Of a stretch of 24,006 nt of DNA, positions 14,809 to 22,861 are shown piece after piece. Numbering within the stretch: the stretch's first letter is position 1; each line of letters opens with the position of its first letter. Where the stretch lies: the UHGV virus genome UHGV-1462358; one strand, given 5' to 3'. This stretch comes from a virus. Below the pieces are notes generated by a model, which worked only from the letters and a program-made list of their open reading frames with translations, was not told the DNA's origin and did not search any database. Made by a program: the position numbers and the translations under genes.

Positions 14809-15383
14809 TGACCCGCATTGAGCTTGGCGGCGTGCTCGGGAAATCATTCGGTAAAATTCACCACCGCCTGATTTCCCGTGTAAGCGAGGCGGGAGTGGCG
14901 CTCGCAAAGACTATTCCGGGCTTTGAGCAGTTTATGATTTCCAGCCAGCGCCGTGGGCTCACATACTCCGTATTTAAGGGTAAAAAAAACATCGGTGTGG
15001 ATGACCTCGGTTTCCCGGTTACCGGCGATGTTATCCGCATTGTCCCGGTAATCATCGGGAGTAAAAAAGCCGGTTTGATTCAAACTATCCTGGGCGCAGT
15101 ATTAGTGATTGCATCGATCTGGATGCCAGGTCTGAGTATAGCTGCCAGCAATATGATGTTTGCTGCTGGTGCGTCCATAACGCTGGGGGGGGTAGTTCAG
15201 ATGATATCCCCTCAGGCTACAGGGCTGGCCAGCAAACAGAGCTCAGATAACCGCGCCTCATACGCGTTCGGCGGAGTCACAAATACCGCCGCACAGGGTT
15301 ACCCGGTTCCGCTCCTGTACGGCCGCCGGAGAATCGGCGGGGCAATTATTTCTGCCGGAATTTATGTCGAAGATCAGCAGTAG
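14796..15383 (+). CDS. I: Tail assembly protein (lambda gpI homolog)
   Basis: 195 aa. Hydrophobic Gly/Ala-rich central segment and C-terminal PLLYGRRRIGG motif resembling lambda gpI (PVLYGEMRVG). Overlaps the K 3' end. Confidence 0.85.
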   Translation: MQEVMTRIELGGVLGKSFGKIHHRLISRVSEAGVALAKTIPGFEQFMISSQRRGLTYSVFKGKKNIGVDDLGFPVTGDVIRIVPVIIGSKKAGLIQTILGAVLVIASIWMPGLSIAASNMMFAAGASITLGGVVQMISPQATGLASKQSSDNRASYAFGGVTNTAAQGYPVPLLYGRRRIGGAIISAGIYVEDQQ

Positions 15384-15400
15384 TTAACAAACCTTTTTAC

Positions 15401-15426
15401 AAGCCACCTTCGGGTGGCTTTTTTTA
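15401..15426 (+). terminator. Intrinsic terminator/attenuator between I and J
   Basis: AAGCCACC-TTCG-GGTGGCTT perfect 8-bp stem with UUCG tetraloop (15401-15420) followed by TTTTTT (15420-15425), 11 nt before the J ATG. Confidence 0.7.
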
Positions 15427-15436
15427 TGGGCGCGAT

Positions 15437-18400
15437 ATGGCTAAAACAATTACCGGACGAAAAGGCGGGAGCTCCAGTTCCCGAACTCCCACCGAACAGC
15501 CTGATGATCTGCAATCTGTAGCGAAGGCAAAGATCCTCGTTGCGCTTGGGGAAGGGGAGTTTGCTGGACAGCTCACCGGGAAGGATATCTACCTGGACGG
15601 AACGGCGCTGGAGAACGCCGACGGCTCCCAAAACTTCAGCGGCGTTACGTGGGAATTTCGTCCGGGGACTCAGGCACAAAAATATATTCAGGGTATCCCC
15701 GGCACCGAAAATGAAATCAGCGTGGGCACCGAAGTGTCAAGCACCACCGGCTGGACACATACCTTTACCAACACGCAACTGTCAGCCGTTCGCCTGCGCC
15801 TCAAGTGGCCATCGCTTTTTAAACAGGAGGATGATGGCGATCTGGTTGGCTATTCAATTAACTACGCTATTGATCTGCAGACCGATGGCGGCACCTGGCA
15901 GACGGTACTTAATACCAGCGTAACCGGCAAGACAACTTCCGGCTACGAACGCAGCCATCGCATTGACCTACCGCAGGCAGGCAGCACATGGACGGTGCGC
16001 CTGCGTAAGCTAACGGCGGATGCCAACAGCGCGAAAATTGGTGACACGATGACGCTGCAGAGCTATACAGAGGTCATTGACGCCAAACTGCGTTATCCAA
16101 ATACCGCGCTGCTGTACATCGAATTCGACTCAAGCCAGTTTAACGGCTCTATCCCGCAAATATCCTGCGAACCGCGAGGGCGTGTAATCCGCGTTCCGGA
16201 TACGTATGACCCGGAGACCCGCACCTATAGCGGCACATGGACGGGGGCGTTTAAGTGGGCGTGGACGGATAATCCAGCCTGGATTTTTTACGATCTGGTG
16301 GTGAGCGACCGCTTTGGGCTGGGCAATCGCCTGACGGCGGCCAATATTGATAAATGGACGCTTTACCAGGTCGCGCAATATTGCGATCAGCCGGTTCCTG
16401 ATGGTAAAGGCGGTAGCGGCACTGAGCCTCGCTATACCTGCAACGTGTATGTGCAGGAGAGGAATGACGCCTATACCGTGTTACGAGATTTTGCGGCGAT
16501 ATTCCGGGGCATGACTTACTGGGGTGGCGATCAAATCGTTGCGCTGGCGGATATGCCCCGCGATGTGGATTACAGCTACACGCGTGCAAACGTGGTTAAT
16601 GGGCGCTTTACCTATTCGGGCAGCACCACGAAAACCCGCTATACCACAGCACTGGTTTCCTGGTCCGATCCGGGTAATGCCTACGCGGATGCGATGGAGC
16701 CTGTATTTGAGCAGGATCTCGTTGCTCGCTTTGGCACAAATCAGCTCGAAATGACAGCCATTGGTTGTACCAGACAGTCAGAAGCGAACCGAAAGGGGCG
16801 CTGGGGTATTCTCACCAACAACAAGGATCGCGTTGTTTCGTTCGATGTCGGGCTGGACGGAAACATACCGCAGCCTGGCTATATCATCGCTGTGGCAGAC
16901 GAGCTGCTTTCCGGAAAGGTTATGGGCGGACGCATCAGCGCCGTTAATGGTCGCGTTATCAAACTTGACCGTGTAGCTGATGCGGCAGCAGGTGATCGCC
17001 TTATCCTCAACCTTCCCTCCGGAGCGTCACAGAGCAGGACAATTCAGGCGGTTAACGGGGAATCGGTCACAGTCACCACCGCATACAGTGAGACGCCGCA
17101 GGCCGAAGCTGTCTGGGTGGTTGAGTCAAACGAACTGTACGCACAGCAGTACCGTGTTGTGAGCGTCACTGATAACGATGATGGCACTTTCACCATTACC
17201 GGTGCATGGCACGATCCGGATAAATATGCCCGAATCGATACCGGAGCCATTATTGACCAGCGGCCGGTGAGCGTGATCCCGCCGGGCAATCAGTCACCGC
17301 CAGACAACATCGTAATCAGTTCGTTTTCGGTGGTGCAGCAGAATATCAGCGTCGAAACCATGCGCGTGAGCTGGGACCAGGCGCAGAATGCTATCGCCTA
17401 TGAAGCGCAATGGCGCCGCAACGACGGGAACTGGGTTAACGTGCCGCGCAGTTCCACCACGTCATTCGACGTTCCTGGGATTTATGCCGGGCGCTATCTG
17501 GTACGTGTACGCGCCATCAATGCCGCAGAAATTTCATCCGGGTGGGGATATTCGGAAGAGAAAACGCTGACGGGTAAAGTGGGCAATCCGCCGAAACCGG
17601 TCGGCTTCATCGCTTCCGATAATGTGGTATTCGGTATCGAGCTGAGCTGGGGATTCCCGGCGAACACCGACGACACGCTGAAGACGGAAATTCAGTACAG
17701 TCTGACTGGGACGGAAGACGATGCGATGCTGCTGGCAGACGTACCCTATCCGCAGCGCAAGTATCAGCAGATGGGCCTAAAGGCTGGGCAAATTTTCTGG
17801 TACCGCGCGCAGCTGGTGGACCGCAGCGGAAACGAATCAGGGTATACAGACTTTGTGCGCGGGCAGGCCAGCATCGATGTATCCGATATCACCGATGCAA
17901 TCCTGGAGGATATGAAAGAGTCGGAAACGTTCAAAGACCTGATCGAGAACGCGGTAGACAGCAATGAAAAAATTGCTGGTATGGCTGACGACATTAAACA
18001 GGCCAACGACGAACTGGCGCAACAGGCGCAGGATATCGCCAAAAACGCCCAGGATATCGGGAAGGTTCAGACCAGCGTTACAAACCTGTCGAGCACGGTC
18101 GGAGATGTGTCTTCTTCTCTGAGCAAGCTTGAGCAGACAGTGGCGACGGCTGATACCGCGCTGGGCCAGCGCATCGATAACATCAGCGTGTCTGTGGACG
18201 GTATGACGGGAGGAGTGAAGAACTCTGCCATCGCGATTATTCAGGGCAACCTGGCGCAGGTGGCGGCGCGCAAAACGCTGTCTGCATCCGTCGCCGGTAA
18301 CAGCGCGCAGCTGGACCGCATTGATGAGGTGATCGTCAACGAGAAAGAGGCAACGGCGCGTTCGCTGCTGAGTTTGCAGACTAACGTGAACGGCAACAAG

Positions 18401-18982
18401 GCATCTATCAACAGCCTGAACCAGACGTTCTCCGATTACCAGCAGGCCACGGCCACGCAGATAAACGGGATCACAGCGACCGTCAACGGACACACATCAG
18501 CCATTACCACTAACGCTCAGGCCATAGCGAACGTTAACGGTGATCTGAAGGCGATGTACAGCATCAAGGTTGGTGTCTCCAGCAATGGTCAGTATTACGC
18601 CGCAGGGATGGGGATCGGCGTGGAGAATACGCCGTCCGGCATGCAGTCACAGGTCATCTTCCTGGCTGACCGCTTCGCCGTCACCACGGCAGCAGGTAAC
18701 AGCGTGGCTTTGCCGTTTGTGATCCAGAACGGGCAGACATTCATCCGGGCCAGTTTCATCCAGGACGGCACTATCAGCAACGCAAAGATTGGTAATTTTA
18801 TCCAGTCGAACAATTATGTTGCTGGTTCTGCTGGCTGGAAGCTTGATAAAGGGGGGACGTTTGAGAACTACGGTTCGACTGCTGGTGAGGGAGCCATGAA
18901 ACTGACAAATCAGACGATCAGCGTCAAAGATGGCAGTAATGTTCTTAGGGTGCAGGTTGGCCGATTAACGGGAGTATTCTGA
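15437..18982 (+). CDS. J: Central tail fibre / host specificity protein (lambda gpJ homolog)
   Basis: 1181 aa versus 1132 for lambda J. Conserved blocks (TEVIDAKLRYPNTALLYIEFDS, YSGTWTGAFKWAWTDNPAWIFYDL, YQVAQYCDQPVPDGKGGSGTEPRYTCNVY) match lambda J as recalled. The C-terminal ~150 aa differ from lambda. Confidence 0.95.
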   Translation: MAKTITGRKGGSSSSRTPTEQPDDLQSVAKAKILVALGEGEFAGQLTGKDIYLDGTALENADGSQNFSGVTWEFRPGTQAQKYIQGIPGTENEISVGTEVSSTTGWTHTFTNTQLSAVRLRLKWPSLFKQEDDGDLVGYSINYAIDLQTDGGTWQTVLNTSVTGKTTSGYERSHRIDLPQAGSTWTVRLRKLTADANSAKIGDTMTLQSYTEVIDAKLRYPNTALLYIEFDSSQFNGSIPQISCEPRGRVIRVPDTYDPETRTYSGTWTGAFKWAWTDNPAWIFYDLVVSDRFGLGNRLTAANIDKWTLYQVAQYCDQPVPDGKGGSGTEPRYTCNVYVQERNDAYTVLRDFAAIFRGMTYWGGDQIVALADMPRDVDYSYTRANVVNGRFTYSGSTTKTRYTTALVSWSDPGNAYADAMEPVFEQDLVARFGTNQLEMTAIGCTRQSEANRKGRWGILTNNKDRVVSFDVGLDGNIPQPGYIIAVADELLSGKVMGGRISAVNGRVIKLDRVADAAAGDRLILNLPSGASQSRTIQAVNGESVTVTTAYSETPQAEAVWVVESNELYAQQYRVVSVTDNDDGTFTITGAWHDPDKYARIDTGAIIDQRPVSVIPPGNQSPPDNIVISSFSVVQQNISVETMRVSWDQAQNAIAYEAQWRRNDGNWVNVPRSSTTSFDVPGIYAGRYLVRVRAINAAEISSGWGYSEEKTLTGKVGNPPKPVGFIASDNVVFGIELSWGFPANTDDTLKTEIQYSLTGTEDDAMLLADVPYPQRKYQQMGLKAGQIFWYRAQLVDRSGNESGYTDFVRGQASIDVSDITDAILEDMKESETFKDLIENAVDSNEKIAGMADDIKQANDELAQQAQDIAKNAQDIGKVQTSVTNLSSTVGDVSSSLSKLEQTVATADTALGQRIDNISVSVDGMTGGVKNSAIAIIQGNLAQVAARKTLSASVAGNSAQLDRIDEVIVNEKEATARSLLSLQTNVNGNKASINSLNQTFSDYQQATATQINGITATVNGHTSAITTNAQAIANVNGDLKAMYSIKVGVSSNGQYYAAGMGIGVENTPSGMQSQVIFLADRFAVTTAAGNSVALPFVIQNGQTFIRASFIQDGTISNAKIGNFIQSNNYVAGSAGWKLDKGGTFENYGSTAGEGAMKLTNQTISVKDGSNVLRVQVGRLTGVF

Positions 18983-18983
18983 A

Positions 18984-19286
18984 ATGGCTTATGGAATACA
19001 GACCTGGGATGCTTCAGGAAAACCCAACAACTATGGCATCAAACCCGTTTCCGTCGTTGGGCGAATACAGCTGGCTGCCGGGCAAACCTCCGGCAGCTGG
19101 TCTTTTACGGTGCCCTCAGGAATGAAAGTTGGTTTTGTTCTTTCACTTGATGAAGGAGGTAACAGCGTAGGGCGGCGCATTGTCGCGTCAGGGAGCACAA
19201 TAACCGTAAGCGCTGCATCTTCTGTAGGTCTGGGTAATTATCCGGCCTCAAAGTGTGAAGTGGTCGTTTTCATGGAGAAAGCATAA
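18984..19286 (+). CDS. Hypothetical protein, translationally coupled to J (function unknown)
   Basis: 100-aa ORF with ATG 1 nt after the J stop and GGGAG 9 nt upstream. Shares a G-x3-W-D-A-x-G-K motif with the next ORF. Confidence 0.6.
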   Translation: MAYGIQTWDASGKPNNYGIKPVSVVGRIQLAAGQTSGSWSFTVPSGMKVGFVLSLDEGGNSVGRRIVASGSTITVSAASSVGLGNYPASKCEVVVFMEKA

Positions 19287-19960
19287 TGGCCGAATTTGGC
19301 GCGATGATATTAATGGACAACGGGAACCCATTTGTAACGCCCCAGTCAACGCCTTTTTGTCTTTACGGCAAGTACACTTTCAACTCCTCTGCTAATGGCA
19401 GTTCGCAGCAGGTTGCTCAGAATATTGCATTAAATGCTGACTACCCTGTGATGGTATTTATCAGGACCACAAATACCGCCCAGCCCACGCCAGTAATATC
19501 TTACCGGAACGGAGGAAATGTATATGTCGCGGGGGTTAATCCCTATAACAAGAGCTTCACGTTAACCGCATATATATTTGCCATATTTCCCCAGACGTTA
19601 CCGAAATGGGGGATGGCCATCTGGGATGCGGCAGGAAAGCTGGTGCTCACTAATGAGTCCCGGGTGTTGTCCGACCTACAGACAATTGGAACGCCTGGCG
19701 CAAACGGAGGGATAAATATCGATCAGACACTTAGCGGGCCATGGGCTGTTGCACCTGCACAGCTTGGCCAAAGCATCGTTGTGAATAACTCAACCCAGCC
19801 TCCGACAATCTACACCATTAATGCTTATTCGGCGTGCAGGTTTGACGGGGCCAATACGAGGATAAACGCAGGGGGGACCTCCACTGGCACAGGCTCTCCG
19901 GTAGGGGTAACGAATACTGGAATTTCCTTAACCGCGATAAATACAGCGGCCTATGACTGA
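19286..19960 (+). CDS. Hypothetical protein containing two tandem copies of the domain found in the preceding ORF
   Basis: 224 aa. Start overlaps the previous stop (TAATG). Motif copies at the N-terminus (GAMILMDNGNP) and mid-protein (GMAIWDAAGK) match YGIQTWDASGKP of the upstream ORF. Confidence 0.6.
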   Translation: MAEFGAMILMDNGNPFVTPQSTPFCLYGKYTFNSSANGSSQQVAQNIALNADYPVMVFIRTTNTAQPTPVISYRNGGNVYVAGVNPYNKSFTLTAYIFAIFPQTLPKWGMAIWDAAGKLVLTNESRVLSDLQTIGTPGANGGINIDQTLSGPWAVAPAQLGQSIVVNNSTQPPTIYTINAYSACRFDGANTRINAGGTSTGTGSPVGVTNTGISLTAINTAAYD

Positions 19961-20071: not shown

Positions 20072-20305
20072 ATGATTAAGCTTCTTATCGGTATGGCTTG
20101 CGCTGCCATGCTTTCAGGTTGCGCTGGTGTACTTGAGAAACAGGAACCGATTTGCAGCGGCACGGCATATATGGGTGGCCATGAGAATACCGTTATGATT
20201 TACGCCGTTCGAAAGCAAAACAACCAGACGCAATACCGGGCCGGATATCCCTTTAACTGGCGCTGGGTAAGTGCGAACACATTCACAAGCACGACATGTA
20301 AATAA
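20072..20305 (+). CDS. Small outer-membrane lipoprotein moron; putative Cor/Llp-like superinfection-exclusion protein
   Basis: 77 aa. Signal peptide MIKLLIGMACAAMLSGC with lipobox L-S-G-C. Located 3' of the receptor-binding genes and flanked by its own terminator. The Cor/Llp assignment rests on size, lipobox and position only. Confidence 0.6.
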   Translation: MIKLLIGMACAAMLSGCAGVLEKQEPICSGTAYMGGHENTVMIYAVRKQNNQTQYRAGYPFNWRWVSANTFTSTTCK

Positions 20306-20325
20306 CTCATGACTTTCAATGCAAA

Positions 20326-20347
20326 CCTCGCCTCGGCGGGGTTTTTT
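20326..20347 (+). terminator. Intrinsic terminator after the lipoprotein gene
   Basis: GC-rich hairpin (CCTCGCC/GGCGGGG arms) followed by TTTTTT at 20342-20347, 21 nt after the stop at 20305. Confidence 0.6.
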
Positions 20348-20363
20348 ATTGCCTGGAGAAAAT

Positions 20364-21473
20364 ATGCTTTATAACACAGGAACTATCTCTATTAACGGAA
20401 ATACCGCAACCGGATCCGGTACAAACTGGACTGCACCGGCCAGCCAGGTTCGCGCTGGCCAGACGATTATTGTCATGTCTAACCCGGTTCAGATGTTCCA
20501 GATTTCATCCGTGAATAGCGCCACGTCAATGACGGTAACGCCTGCTGCATCACCGGCGCTGAGCGGCCAGAAGTACGGCATTCTGGTATCAGACAATATC
20601 TCGGTTGATGGGCTGGCGCTGGCCATGTCGCAGCTTATCAAGGAGTATGACGAGAATATTGGTGCGTGGGAGACGTTCGCCACAACCTCAGCCAACCAGA
20701 ACATTACCGTTACGATCAATGGCACCAGTTTATCAATCCCGGCTCTTGGGAAATTACTGCAGAAGGGGAGCAACGGAGCTTTGCCGGTTAATCAAGGTGG
20801 TACCGGCGCAACGAATGCCGCAGACGCTCGCACAAACCTTGGTTTAGGAAGTAGTGCGACAAAGGATGTCGGAACTGCGGCAGGGAATGTTATGCAGGTG
20901 GGAGCTTTTGGGGTTGGTGCTGCTCTCCAAAATAAGCCCACAGATGCCAGTTCATCCTTCATCAGTGATGCTGCTGGCAATACTCTGTGGGCTCCTGCGA
21001 ATGGCTGTGGGTTTCAGAGTTCCTACACCGAGCAGCGAATTGCGCAGCTGTGGATTACTTACGGTGGTGCGATATTCAGCCGTTTTCTAACAACCACTGA
21101 TGACCCTCAAACACCAAAATCATCAGTGCCGTGGGCGCAGCTGCAGTCTGCAGGTACATCGGACATAAATTTCAAGAAGGTTACTGGAGAACTTAATTTA
21201 GAAGTGTCTCTGGCCAACATCGTGGCAATGGATTTTAAGACCTTCTACTACCTTGCTGATGAAGAGAAAACGATACGCCGAGGTGTTGTTGCTCAGGAAC
21301 TGGAAAAGATAGATCCGCAATATGTTCACTCGGCTGAGGAGTCGGGGAAAATGACCCTAGACCTCAATCCTCTGGTGCTCGATGCGCTGGCGGCAATCAA
21401 AGAGCTGGCAATCCGCGTCAGCGCATTAGAGGGCGACGCTAAATCTCCGGCTTCTGGCTCATCCGCTGGTTAA
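20364..21473 (+). CDS. Side tail fibre protein: constant N-terminal part (to ~20840) fused to the variable part currently in the expressed orientation; C-terminal intramolecular chaperone-like (peptidase S74-type) domain
   Basis: ATG at 20364 with GGAGA RBS; the track's 20319 start runs through the terminator hairpin. GGTGATNAADARTNLGLGSSAT hinge motif is typical of phage tail fibres. C-terminal ...FKTFYYLADEE..GVVAQELEKIDPQYV...LVLDALAAIKELAIRVSALE fits the self-cleaving chaperone domain pattern. Confidence 0.75.
   Translation: MLYNTGTISINGNTATGSGTNWTAPASQVRAGQTIIVMSNPVQMFQISSVNSATSMTVTPAASPALSGQKYGILVSDNISVDGLALAMSQLIKEYDENIGAWETFATTSANQNITVTINGTSLSIPALGKLLQKGSNGALPVNQGGTGATNAADARTNLGLGSSATKDVGTAAGNVMQVGAFGVGAALQNKPTDASSSFISDAAGNTLWAPANGCGFQSSYTEQRIAQLWITYGGAIFSRFLTTTDDPQTPKSSVPWAQLQSAGTSDINFKKVTGELNLEVSLANIVAMDFKTFYYLADEEKTIRRGVVAQELEKIDPQYVHSAEESGKMTLDLNPLVLDALAAIKELAIRVSALEGDAKSPASGSSAG
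20827..20852. repeat. Left recombination site (gix/hix-like 26-bp site) of the invertible segment
   Basis: CTCGCACAAACC-TT-GGTTTAGGAAGT: dyad-symmetric AAACC-NN-GGTTT centre, as in hix/gix sites as recalled. Inner half matches the inner half of the right site at 10 of 12 positions. Confidence 0.6.
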
Positions 21474-22228
21474 ACAGTGAATCTGCGGGCATATCCAAGC
21501 GAACATCGATCCAGCTGTTCGCCGGTACGTCCATCGGTTCACCTTTGGTTTTGATGATTTCACCTTCATCGCTCAGGATGTATTTGCGTTTATACAGACG
21601 GATAGTCAGCCCACCGCTATCGGTTTGCTCTGCCTCAACTACACCCAGTTCCCCCATGCCGCCAGGGTCCATTGGGGGAAGTAACTGCCATCCCTCAGAC
21701 GCCAGGCCTGCCGAACCTGTGAGAACATAAACGCCGACATCAAGCCGTGAAATAGTAATGCCCTCAGCCTCGGCATTCGCCGCACCGCAGCCGCACCAGG
21801 TAAAACCATCCTCCGCTATATCAGCACGCTGGCACTCATCCTTGCTCGTTACAATTCGTGCCACGGGGGAGGCAGCTTTGATAGTGCCGTCACTGGCTTT
21901 TGTCGTATTAGCTGTATGGTAAAATTCATACCATTTACCTGCTGTTCCGCCTATAACCTGGCTAAACATTTTTCTCCCGACAGGCCCACTTAGCCAGCAC
22001 TCAAAGGTGCCGTAATTTGGGCTTCGGTTCATCCAGACACCGTAGCCCGCATCATTAGTTGGCAGGCCGTTGCCGGAACCAGAGGCAATGTTATAAAAGC
22101 CATTTAATCTCGCGTTTTCGTAACGGTTTTGTTCGGCAGGGGCAACAACACCCAAGCCCAAATCCCCTACAGAAAGTATATCGCCAGATGAGCTGTACGC
22201 GTTCCTTGTAGCGCTGCTTCCCAAACCA
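20840..22228. mobile_element. About 1.4 kb invertible DNA segment (Mu G / P1 C / e14 P-type) carrying two convergent alternative tail-fibre C-terminal coding regions
   Basis: Bounded by inverted gix-like sites with identical TT core dinucleotides in inverted orientation. Both cores fall at codon positions 2-3 in the respective reading frames. A Gin/Pin-family invertase gene lies immediately adjacent. Confidence 0.6.
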
Positions 22229-22229
22229 A
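21439..22229 (-). CDS. Alternative tail-fibre C-terminal segment (currently in non-expressed orientation; no start codon of its own within the segment)
   Basis: Minus-strand ORF encoding ...NVGLGSSATRNAYSS..., sharing the (N)xGLGSSAT junction motif with the + strand fibre. It overlaps the + fibre 3' end convergently by 35 bp. The track's GTG start at 22272 lies outside the segment and is probably fortuitous. Confidence 0.6.
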
Positions 22230-22241
22230 CGTTTAATAGAT
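22216..22241. repeat. Right recombination site (gix/hix-like) of the invertible segment
   Basis: GCTTCCCAAACC-AA-CGTTTAATAGAT on the + strand. Its reverse complement ATCTATTAAACG-TT-GGTTTGGGAAGC aligns with the left site. Confidence 0.55.
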
Positions 22242-22305
22242 TGCCACGGGCCGGCCTGGCCGATAACTTCACCTGATTTTTTTGCAGAATTTATTGGGTG
22301 AAAAA

Positions 22306-22861
22306 TATGCAAATTGGCTATGTCAGAGTGTCAACAAATGACCAAAATACAGATCTCCAGCGCCAATCTCTCGAACGCGCAGGATGTGAACAGGTTTTTG
22401 AAGAAAAAATGAGCGGGACGGTAGCGAACCGGCCAGCGCTCAAAAAGCTTCTGCGGACTCTGAATGCGGGCGATACACTGGTGGTGTGGAAACTAGATCG
22501 CCTCGGGCGAAGCATGCGAAATTTAGTGCTGCTGGTGGACGAACTCCGACAGCGGGGCATTCACTTTAAGAGCCTCACGGACAGCATTGATACATCAAGT
22601 CCAATGGGGCGTTTTATATTTCACATCATGTCAGCGCTGGCGGAAATGGAAAGAGAGTTAATCGTCGAACGCACCCGGGCTGGATTAGCGGCGGCGCGGG
22701 AAAAAGGGCGAATAGGTGGCAGACGTCCAAAATTAACTCCCGAGCAATGGGCACAGGCTGGGAGATTAATATTAAACGGCGTGGATAGAAAACAAGTGGC
22801 AATAATTTATGATGTCGCTGTATGCACGCTTTATAAAAAATTTCCGGTGGGACAGGCTTAA
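22306..22861 (+). CDS. Serine recombinase, DNA invertase (Gin/Hin/Pin/Cin family)
   Basis: MQIGYVRVSTNDQNTDLQR... with catalytic Ser in the VRVSTNDQ motif. TLVVWKLDRLGRS, SLTDSIDTSSPMGRF and the C-terminal HTH (KQVAIIYDVAVCTLYKKFP) are near-identical to Gin/Hin as recalled. ATG at 22306 preferred over the track's GTG at 22298. Confidence 0.9.

Follow-up and report, generated by a model that had tools for sequence, protein, structure and literature searches.

The gp22/gp23 gene pair downstream of J in a phi80-type lambdoid genome: candidate parts of an FhuA receptor-binding cassette

Which protein of the FhuA-dependent siphophages recognizes the receptor? To our knowledge, the FhuA-binding protein of these phages has never been shown biochemically. 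The phages concerned, long-established models that also turn up often as laboratory contaminants, include T1, phi80, N15, ES18, and many T1-like isolates. We address the question with a locus in UHGV virus genome UHGV-1462358, of which a stretch of 24,006 nt was analyzed (hereafter the window; all positions are in whole-window numbering). Two small open reading frames (ORFs), ORF1 and ORF2, lie there between J, which encodes the tail-tip fibre, and cor, which encodes an exclusion lipoprotein directed at FhuA. We consider it probable that FhuA is bound by gp23, the product of ORF2, which would sit non-covalently on a cassette-specific tip of J, with the product of ORF1, gp22, as a conserved adaptor. 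These two proteins, Cor, and the last ~45 residues of J make up a mobile 'FhuA cassette' located after J in many siphophages.

The gene pair coupled to J

The features on which the argument turns lie in the following order.

18845-18982, plus strand: the C-terminal ~45 residues of J (tail-tip fibre), a cassette-specific tip and the proposed docking site of gp22/gp23; the 5' boundary is approximate.
18984-19286, plus strand: ORF1, the phi80 gp22 homologue, 100 aa; a predicted small beta-sandwich and the proposed conserved adaptor of the receptor-binding complex.
19286-19960, plus strand: ORF2, the phi80 gp23 homologue, 224 aa; two predicted beta-sandwich domains and the proposed FhuA-binding receptor-binding protein (RBP).
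20072-20305, plus strand: cor, third in the cassette, encoding the superinfection-exclusion lipoprotein directed at FhuA (NCBIfam lamb_exclu_cor, NF047972, E = 6.4e-40; phrog_1119).
20323-20344, plus strand: an intrinsic-terminator-like hairpin with a T run just past cor, which ends the J-gp22-gp23-cor unit; in the phi80 records, a terminator is annotated at the corresponding site.

The stop codon of J (TGA, 18980-18982) is separated by one base from the ATG of ORF1 (18984), and the TAA of ORF1 overlaps the ATG of ORF2 in the sequence TAATG (19284-19288). Shine-Dalgarno-like elements precede both ORFs, GGGAG at 18970-18974 ahead of ORF1 and GGAG at 19274-19277 ahead of ORF2. The coordinates, lengths, and junctions agree with those reported for the two ORFs by the first-pass annotation, an earlier reading of this stretch. 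ORF1 and ORF2 are real genes, co-oriented with J and tightly coupled to it. No terminator-like site is seen between J and the end of cor, the first being the one at 20323-20344. The phi80 record FN582354 annotates cor with its own promoter, which a promoter scan of the window did not reproduce.

The pair belongs to a family that is already catalogued. The 977-bp region comprising ORF1 and ORF2 is 99.7% identical in DNA to phi80 (20210-21186) and 99.8% identical to 'Phi06_2987 S', and the ORF1 protein is 100% identical to phi80 gp22. In the phi80 records, the ORFs are annotated as gp22 (100 aa) and gp23 (224 aa), 'similar to N15 gp22/gp23'. Both proteins match PHROG profiles over their full length, ORF1 matching phrog_557 (E = 2.4e-36, residues 1-99 on profile positions 1-100) and ORF2 matching phrog_425 (E = 8.8e-81, residues 1-224 of 224). 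Judged by sequence, ORF1 and ORF2 are gp22 and gp23 of phi80 and N15 (PHROG 557 and PHROG 425), and the earlier statement that neither is assignable to a known family is superseded. The pairs of phi80, N15, and ES18 (gp30/gp31 in the last) have the same lengths, order, overlaps, and position after J, with cor present. Between the window and reference phi80, the two genes show no material difference; elsewhere, the morF gene that precedes J in phi80 is absent from the window, and the side-tail-fibre/invertase region differs.

Pfam and NCBIfam searches with both ORFs return nothing above threshold and no family for either, membrane-protein families included, and PDB sequences searched with the gp23 alignment profile give no match even at E ≤ 10. 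Matches to Tailspike_C (E = 0.015) and to the C-terminal part of the Sf6 tailspike (E = 0.13) are weak and were judged not significant. No signal peptide, lipobox, or hydrophobic or transmembrane segment is found in gp22 or gp23. The N-termini read MAYGIQTWDAS (ORF1) and MAEFGAMILMDNG (ORF2), and the maximum Kyte-Doolittle means over 19 residues are 1.27 and 0.84, respectively. An analogy with lambda lom was rejected for want of similarity, the ORFs being unrelated to that gene. Lambda lom and stf resemble the pair only in their map position downstream of J; neither ORF matches the Ail/Lom or tail-fibre families in Pfam, and the window has its own side tail fibre gene further downstream (20319-21473).

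Receptor use, the J tip, and the predicted fold of gp23

Homologues of gp23 and gp22 are found by tblastn in 350 and 346 phage records, respectively, with nearly identical taxon distributions (Escherichia 178, Klebsiella 111, and others). The two are a near-obligate pair, always directly after J and usually beside cor. The order J, ~100-aa gene, ~220-aa gene recurs in phi80, N15, Salmonella phage ES18, Klebsiella phage Sushi, and Dhillonvirus PaulFeyerabend, and in PaulFeyerabend a Cor homologue adjoins the pair. In Sushi (Webervirus; L005 4187-5160), the pair follows J and no cor is annotated downstream.

The presence of gp22/gp23 tracks FhuA use. Among the carriers, PaulFeyerabend and KarlBarth are listed with FhuA as receptor in BASEL table S5, and JLBYU37, JLBYU41, and JLBYU60 are FhuA-dependent (PMC10373560). 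The full cassette, that is, Cor and both upstream proteins, is reported in 10 BASEL phages, all FhuA users (PMC13164509). As relayed in that paper, Wietzorrek et al. 2006 place the same cassette in T1, HK022, N15, ES18, and phi80, all FhuA users.

A natural exchange at this locus is provided by two sister Dhillonviruses, Bas15 (PaulFeyerabend, FhuA) and Bas18 (Oekolampad, LptD), which differ at the slot after J. In Bas15, a gp22-like protein of 100 aa, a gp23-like protein of 223 aa, and a Cor homologue are encoded between J and the lateral fibre gene. In Bas18, a protein of 321 aa (Pfam DUF6453, E = 2.1e-121) is encoded in that slot, together with another lipoprotein. The J proteins of the two phages are 90-100% identical up to alignment column 1100, 77% identical over columns 1101-1200, and 20% identical over the last ~49 alignment columns. 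The J protein of the window, compared with those of Bas15, ES18, and Sushi, is 2-56% identical over the body and 59-61% identical in the last ~49 columns. This tip lies mostly beyond the Pfam domain Phage_Tail_Tip (J residues 1022-1156). In these alignments, the exchangeable module appears to start inside J, ~45 residues from its end. A switch of the J tip along with the cassette is expected if the J tip docks gp22/gp23.

Conservation differs along the cassette. Identity to the Klebsiella phages is about 54% for gp22, 59% for the J tip, and 32% for gp23. gp22 is conserved uniformly. gp23 is conserved at residues 11-30 and 91-160 and variable at residues 31-90 and 161-210. The pattern fits an orientation in which gp22 would face the phage and the variable parts of gp23 would face the host.

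Within the gp23 family, a 97% match of HK106, HK446, mEpX1, mEpX2, and mEp234 to the query ends at nucleotide 749 (about gp23 residue 149). The HK106-type copy of gp23 has 212 aa (636 nt) and is 81% identical overall, with a divergent distal part. The alignment suggests a recombination breakpoint within gp23, the putative RBP, of the HK/mEp phages.

The AlphaFold2 model of gp23 (predicted local distance difference test score, pLDDT, 89.5; predicted template modelling score, pTM, 0.86) is all-beta, with strands in two halves. The model of gp22 (pLDDT 82.9) is a seven-strand sandwich, in which the N-terminal 20 residues have pLDDT values of 58-66. By eye, the strand layout of gp22 (23-30, 37-40, 47-54, 62-69, 72-77, and 91-99) looks similar to that of the first half of gp23 (25-33, 40-48, 55-62, 69-75, 78-85, and 92-99). 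Both models share three PDB chains among their top matches. One is 9rpt_C, the RBP of Oekolampad (9RPT chain C). The other two, 3wmp_A and 2ccv_A, are the H-type lectins SLL-2 (3WMP) and Helix pomatia agglutinin (2CCV). With the same top fold matches, gp22 and gp23 both match one small lectin-like sandwich. gp23 is thereby predicted to have the fold of an experimentally solved siphophage RBP, that of Oekolampad. Foldseek comparison of the gp22 model with BFVD gives only weak matches (best E = 9e-4, template modelling score about 0.55), to phage proteins that are small and uncharacterised, and proteins of about gp23 length surface only at E about 0.15.

The synteny, the co-variation of the J tip, and the match of gp23 to a solved siphophage RBP support what had been proposed from the map position, namely a tip-associated or host-interaction role co-expressed with J.

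A proposed receptor-binding assembly and its alternatives

In the mechanism that we propose, gp22 and gp23 would be made together with the tail proteins through translational coupling to J, and both would bind, without a covalent bond, to the end of the J trimer, where the C-terminal tip is specific to the cassette. As an adaptor consisting of one well-conserved sandwich, gp22 would bridge the J tip and gp23. gp23, with two sandwiches in the fold of the LptD-binding RBP of Oekolampad, would contact the extracellular face of FhuA through residues 31-90 and 161-210. Each unit would open with a beta-hairpin (G-h-x-h-x-D/N-x-x-G), which perhaps docks on the preceding unit. The result would be a chain of three lectin-like domains, linked without covalent bonds and running through J tip, gp22, and gp23; in LptD-using phages, its counterpart in the same slot would be one DUF6453 RBP of 321 aa. 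Cor, expressed separately, would block FhuA in infected or lysogenic cells.

Much of this locus has been described. Maffei et al. 2021 (PMC8594841) matched alleles of the post-gpJ locus to receptors and termed these bona fide RBP loci. The window has the marks of such a locus, with a position directly after J, a cognate exclusion lipoprotein (cor), and an allele that tracks FhuA. A bioRxiv study (10.64898/2026.04.02.716166) confirmed the RBP locus across T1-like siphophages and presented an AlphaFold3 model of RBP and FhuA as well as receptor-specific C-terminal tips of J. The structure of the LptD-type RBP has been solved (PMC12685063), and the locus is discussed as the 'cor cassette' in PMC13164509. 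The cassette and the idea of an RBP locus are already published, and the window holds a known cassette in a phi80-type genome. Our additions are modest: the position of the cassette boundary in J, the structural link to 9RPT, and the parallel of hairpins and three domains with a possible split relation to DUF6453. The cassette is a compact exchangeable module, comprising gp22, gp23, cor, and the J tip of ~45 residues, and could serve to predict or re-engineer receptor specificity.

Several points weigh against the assembly proposed here. A literature search found no proteomic or binding data placing gp22/gp23 in the virion or on FhuA (matches under the same gp numbers in Mu, SPP1, and Pam3 are unrelated proteins). 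In a cryo-electron microscopy study of T1, the distal part of J (residues 821-1172) was not resolved, and no protein from the locus was reported. The ES18 record describes gp30 and gp31 as 'function unknown', and the neighbour gp33 is noted there as present in virions. Neither ORF matches PF20051 (DUF6453) at E ≤ 1, and alignment to the DUF6453 family by HHalign gives E = 0.016 for ORF2 and E = 0.033 for ORF1, with probabilities below 3%. The 2026 KanT1 paper (PMC13164509), which had no structural matches, suggested a role in superinfection exclusion. Finally, the daisy-chain docking and the adaptor role of gp22 are what we purely infer.

The alternative that survives best, although we regard it as unlikely, keeps gp23 as the virion RBP and makes gp22 a non-structural chaperone, which helps gp23 to fold or to attach and is absent from the finished particle. 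It accommodates a gp22 that is small, encoded beside the RBP, and always paired with it, and the ES18 record of gp30 is without a 'present in virion' note, unlike that of the nearby gp33. However, gp22 has the predicted lectin-like sandwich and the hairpin of an RBP domain, and its conservation tracks the J tip. In addition, the gp22 gene precedes that of gp23 and takes the place that the first domain has in the single-chain DUF6453 RBP. Known fibre chaperones, lambda Tfa and T4 gp38 for example, usually have their genes after that of the fibre.

Less likely again is that the C-terminal tip of J itself binds FhuA, and that gp22/gp23 are auxiliary lectin-like proteins, for instance for core sugars of the lipopolysaccharide (LPS), that orient the tip. 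Such a division of labour would suit the cassette specificity of the tip and the H-type lectins among the top fold matches of gp22 and gp23. In PMC10373560, too, the RBP is taken to be the J-like protein, and FhuA-dependent infection is reported to be affected by LPS. However, the specific part of the tip comprises only ~45 residues and is 59-63% conserved across phages of E. coli, Salmonella, and Klebsiella, whereas gp23 is fast-evolving. In Oekolampad, the protein with the homologous fold is the one that inserts into the receptor (PMC12685063), and the AlphaFold3 models reported in bioRxiv 10.64898/2026.04.02.716166 are of a locus-encoded protein on FhuA.

The exclusion role, in which gp22/gp23 would be membrane-located partners of Cor, was put forward in PMC13164509 after no structural matches and draws on the adjacency of the pair to cor in many FhuA phages and on PHROG and RefSeq labels of this kind (outer-membrane or membrane-associated protein), but we consider it very improbable: gp22/gp23 are without signal peptide, lipobox, or hydrophobic stretch; Sushi keeps both genes with no cor annotated at the locus, and Klebsiella accounts for 111 carrier records; the genes are coupled to the late structural gene J, while the phi80 record gives cor a separate promoter; gp23 matches a solved RBP fold; and the J tip co-varies with the cassette. 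Recent papers disagree on the pair, two of them describing a receptor-binding locus and one an exclusion function after no structural match. The predicted fold match of gp23 to an LptD-binding protein and the apparently sharp boundary of the cassette in J favour receptor binding.

The hairpin motif, the DUF6453 family, and the surrounding region

The first-pass annotation described the pair as three copies of one ~100-aa domain, with ORF2 as a tandem duplication of ORF1 and with the motif G-x3-W-D-A-x-G-K recurring at three sites. The sites are as follows.

18990-19022, plus strand: N-terminal hairpin motif of ORF1, YGIQTWDASGK, residues 3-13, in common with ORF2 residues 107-118.
19295-19330, plus strand: N-terminal degenerate hairpin of ORF2, FGAMILMDNGNP, residues 4-15, resembling the N-terminus of the Oekolampad RBP, GAGILIDYNDGRP.
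19604-19639, plus strand: inter-domain hairpin of ORF2, KWGMAIWDAAGK, residues 107-118, an exact copy of the motif.

The motif is exact at two of these sites, ORF1 residues 4-13 (GIQTWDASGK) and ORF2 residues 109-118 (GMAIWDAAGK). At the N-terminus of ORF2, it is present in degenerate form only (GAMILMDNGN, G5...G13-N), which retains just the glycine pair and, in place of W, a hydrophobic residue. The motif residues rank among the most conserved in both families. In the ORF1 family, G4 and W8 never vary and G12 hardly does; in the ORF2 family, G5, G109, and W113 are invariant and I8, N12, G13, N14, and P15 are nearly so. The hairpin motif of ORF1 is kept in the distant homologues P0436 and P0419.

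By BLASTP, the ORF1 motif matches ORF2 residues 107-118 with E = 0.015. Profile-profile comparison with HHalign, on homologue alignments of 120 sequences (ORF1) and 111 sequences (ORF2), gives E = 5e-5 to 9e-5 and a probability of 60-67% for ORF1 residues 2-13 against ORF2 residues 107-118. Over whole domains, ORF1 against ORF2(1-105) gives E = 0.036, and ORF2(1-105) against ORF2(106-224) gives E = 0.083, both with probabilities below 2%. Since only the 12-residue motif is significant and the whole-domain comparisons are not, a tandem duplication is not demonstrable from sequence, and the self-alignment does not bear out the claim that ORF2 arose from ORF1 in this way. Three copies of one ~100-aa domain are plausible at the level of the predicted fold. 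A similar hairpin opens each segment, and gp22 and gp23 have the same lectin-like top fold matches; statistical similarity is restricted to the 12-residue motif.

In the models, the N-terminal hairpin of ORF2 has pLDDT values of 72-80. The inter-domain hairpin has predicted strands at residues 111-113 and 119-122, in a block with pLDDT of about 87-90. Confidence is low where the presumed partner would be on another chain and higher in the internal copy, which lies beside its presumed partner on the same chain. This pattern fits the docking idea without proving it.

Similar hairpins can be read in the LptD-type RBP. In Oekolampad, this protein starts with GAGILIDYNDGRP, which resembles the N-terminus of gp23; the comparison of the N-terminal half of ORF2 with the first third of that protein gives E = 0.013, which is not significant. 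By eye, further hairpin-like stretches are seen in the Oekolampad RBP near residues 121 (GLLVANSTDFTAIS) and 214 (GITMTNNQNQVTFST). A consensus G-h-x-h-x-D/N-x-x-G-x-h-x-h-S/T is readable at the start of all six ~100-aa segments (ORF1, both ORF2 halves, and the Oekolampad RBP cut into three). When the 15 pairs of these segments were compared by profile-profile alignment, one was significant. The best pair across families is gp23(1-105) against Oekolampad residues 119-213 (E = 0.0055, probability below 7%). The gp23 model and the DUF6453 RBP (9RPT chain C) have a common predicted three-dimensional fold.

Together, gp22 and gp23 may correspond to the single-chain DUF6453 RBP as a homologue of three domains split over two genes. 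We hold this idea tentatively, at somewhat less than even chances. It is based on the lengths (100 + 224 versus 321 residues), the same slot, and the fold match. If it is true, the FhuA-type and LptD-type RBPs, which have been described as 'unrelated', would constitute one superfamily of tandem lectin-like sandwiches. Each domain would open with a G-h-x-h-x-D/N-x-x-G hairpin docking onto the preceding unit, and the J tip, gp22, and gp23 would be a non-covalent daisy chain, the joints of which could be exchanged to retarget phages.

The two types differ in organization. The RBP of Oekolampad (Bas18) and Rtp44 (PF20051) is a single chain encoded on the opposite strand and binds LptD, whereas the pair in the window consists of two genes and is of the FhuA type, which is always split, unlike the single-chain DUF6453 RBP. 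In a search of 1.84 billion representatives with a hidden Markov model of the gp22 profile, 78 matches were obtained at E ≤ 0.001. Nearly all of the confident ones are standalone proteins of ~100 aa, and no gp22-gp23 fusion is among the 78. Matches in giant repetitive proteins fall on generic Ig-like repeats (Kre9_KNH, Big) and were discarded. A metagenomic protein of 139 aa (P0375) joins the C-terminus of J to the start of gp22 (…RLTGCSDMAYGIQTWD…); it was rejected as a real fusion and most likely reflects read-through of the J stop codon or a sequencing error there, in a contig of short length.

A further point of comparison is pb5 of T5, the gene of which lies away from the tail operon. pb5 has 585 residues (PMC7291167), unlike gp23, and no similarity to pb5 appeared in any search made. 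Like the proposed cassette, T5 combines a separate FhuA-binding RBP at the end of the central fibre (pb5) with a periplasmic FhuA-blocking lipoprotein (Llp; PMC9586334).

The rest of the window is a lambdoid late operon, which runs from terminase to the tape-measure protein and then through homologues of M, L, K, I, and J, the last of which has three Pfam domains (FNIII-A_GpJ, Phage-tail_3, and Phage_Tail_Tip). We take the window to be late-region DNA from a lambdoid phage or prophage of the phi80 type. The gap between I and J is ~53 bp (15383-15437), and the lipoprotein moron morF of phi80 is missing there. J has 1181 aa in the window, compared with 1159 or 1192 aa in two phi80 annotations. 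Since morF is absent and the length of J differs, the window represents a relative of phi80 and not phi80 itself.

Downstream of cor, the side tail fibre region (20319-22861) looks like an invertible switch of the Pin/Gin type. Its components are as follows.

20319-21473, plus strand: side tail fibre gene with a Peptidase_S74 chaperone domain.
21439-22272, minus strand: alternative fibre C-terminal ORF (Pfam Phage_tail_C_2, E = 1e-31).
22298-22861: serine invertase-like ORF.

Reference phi80 has only a pseudogene fragment and pinL in this region. The two fibre ORFs of the window share a near-identical inverted stretch of ~30 bp (AAAC-TTGGTTT-GGAAG-AG-GC-ACAA), at roughly 20835-20865 and 22205-22235, which encodes NLGLGSSAT on one strand and NVGLGSSAT on the other. 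Crossover probably takes place at this stretch. For the side tail fibre gene, the ATG listed as the start (20319) overlaps the terminator hairpin of cor (20323-20344), and the real start is probably an internal ATG at about 20364 (MLYNTGTISING...).

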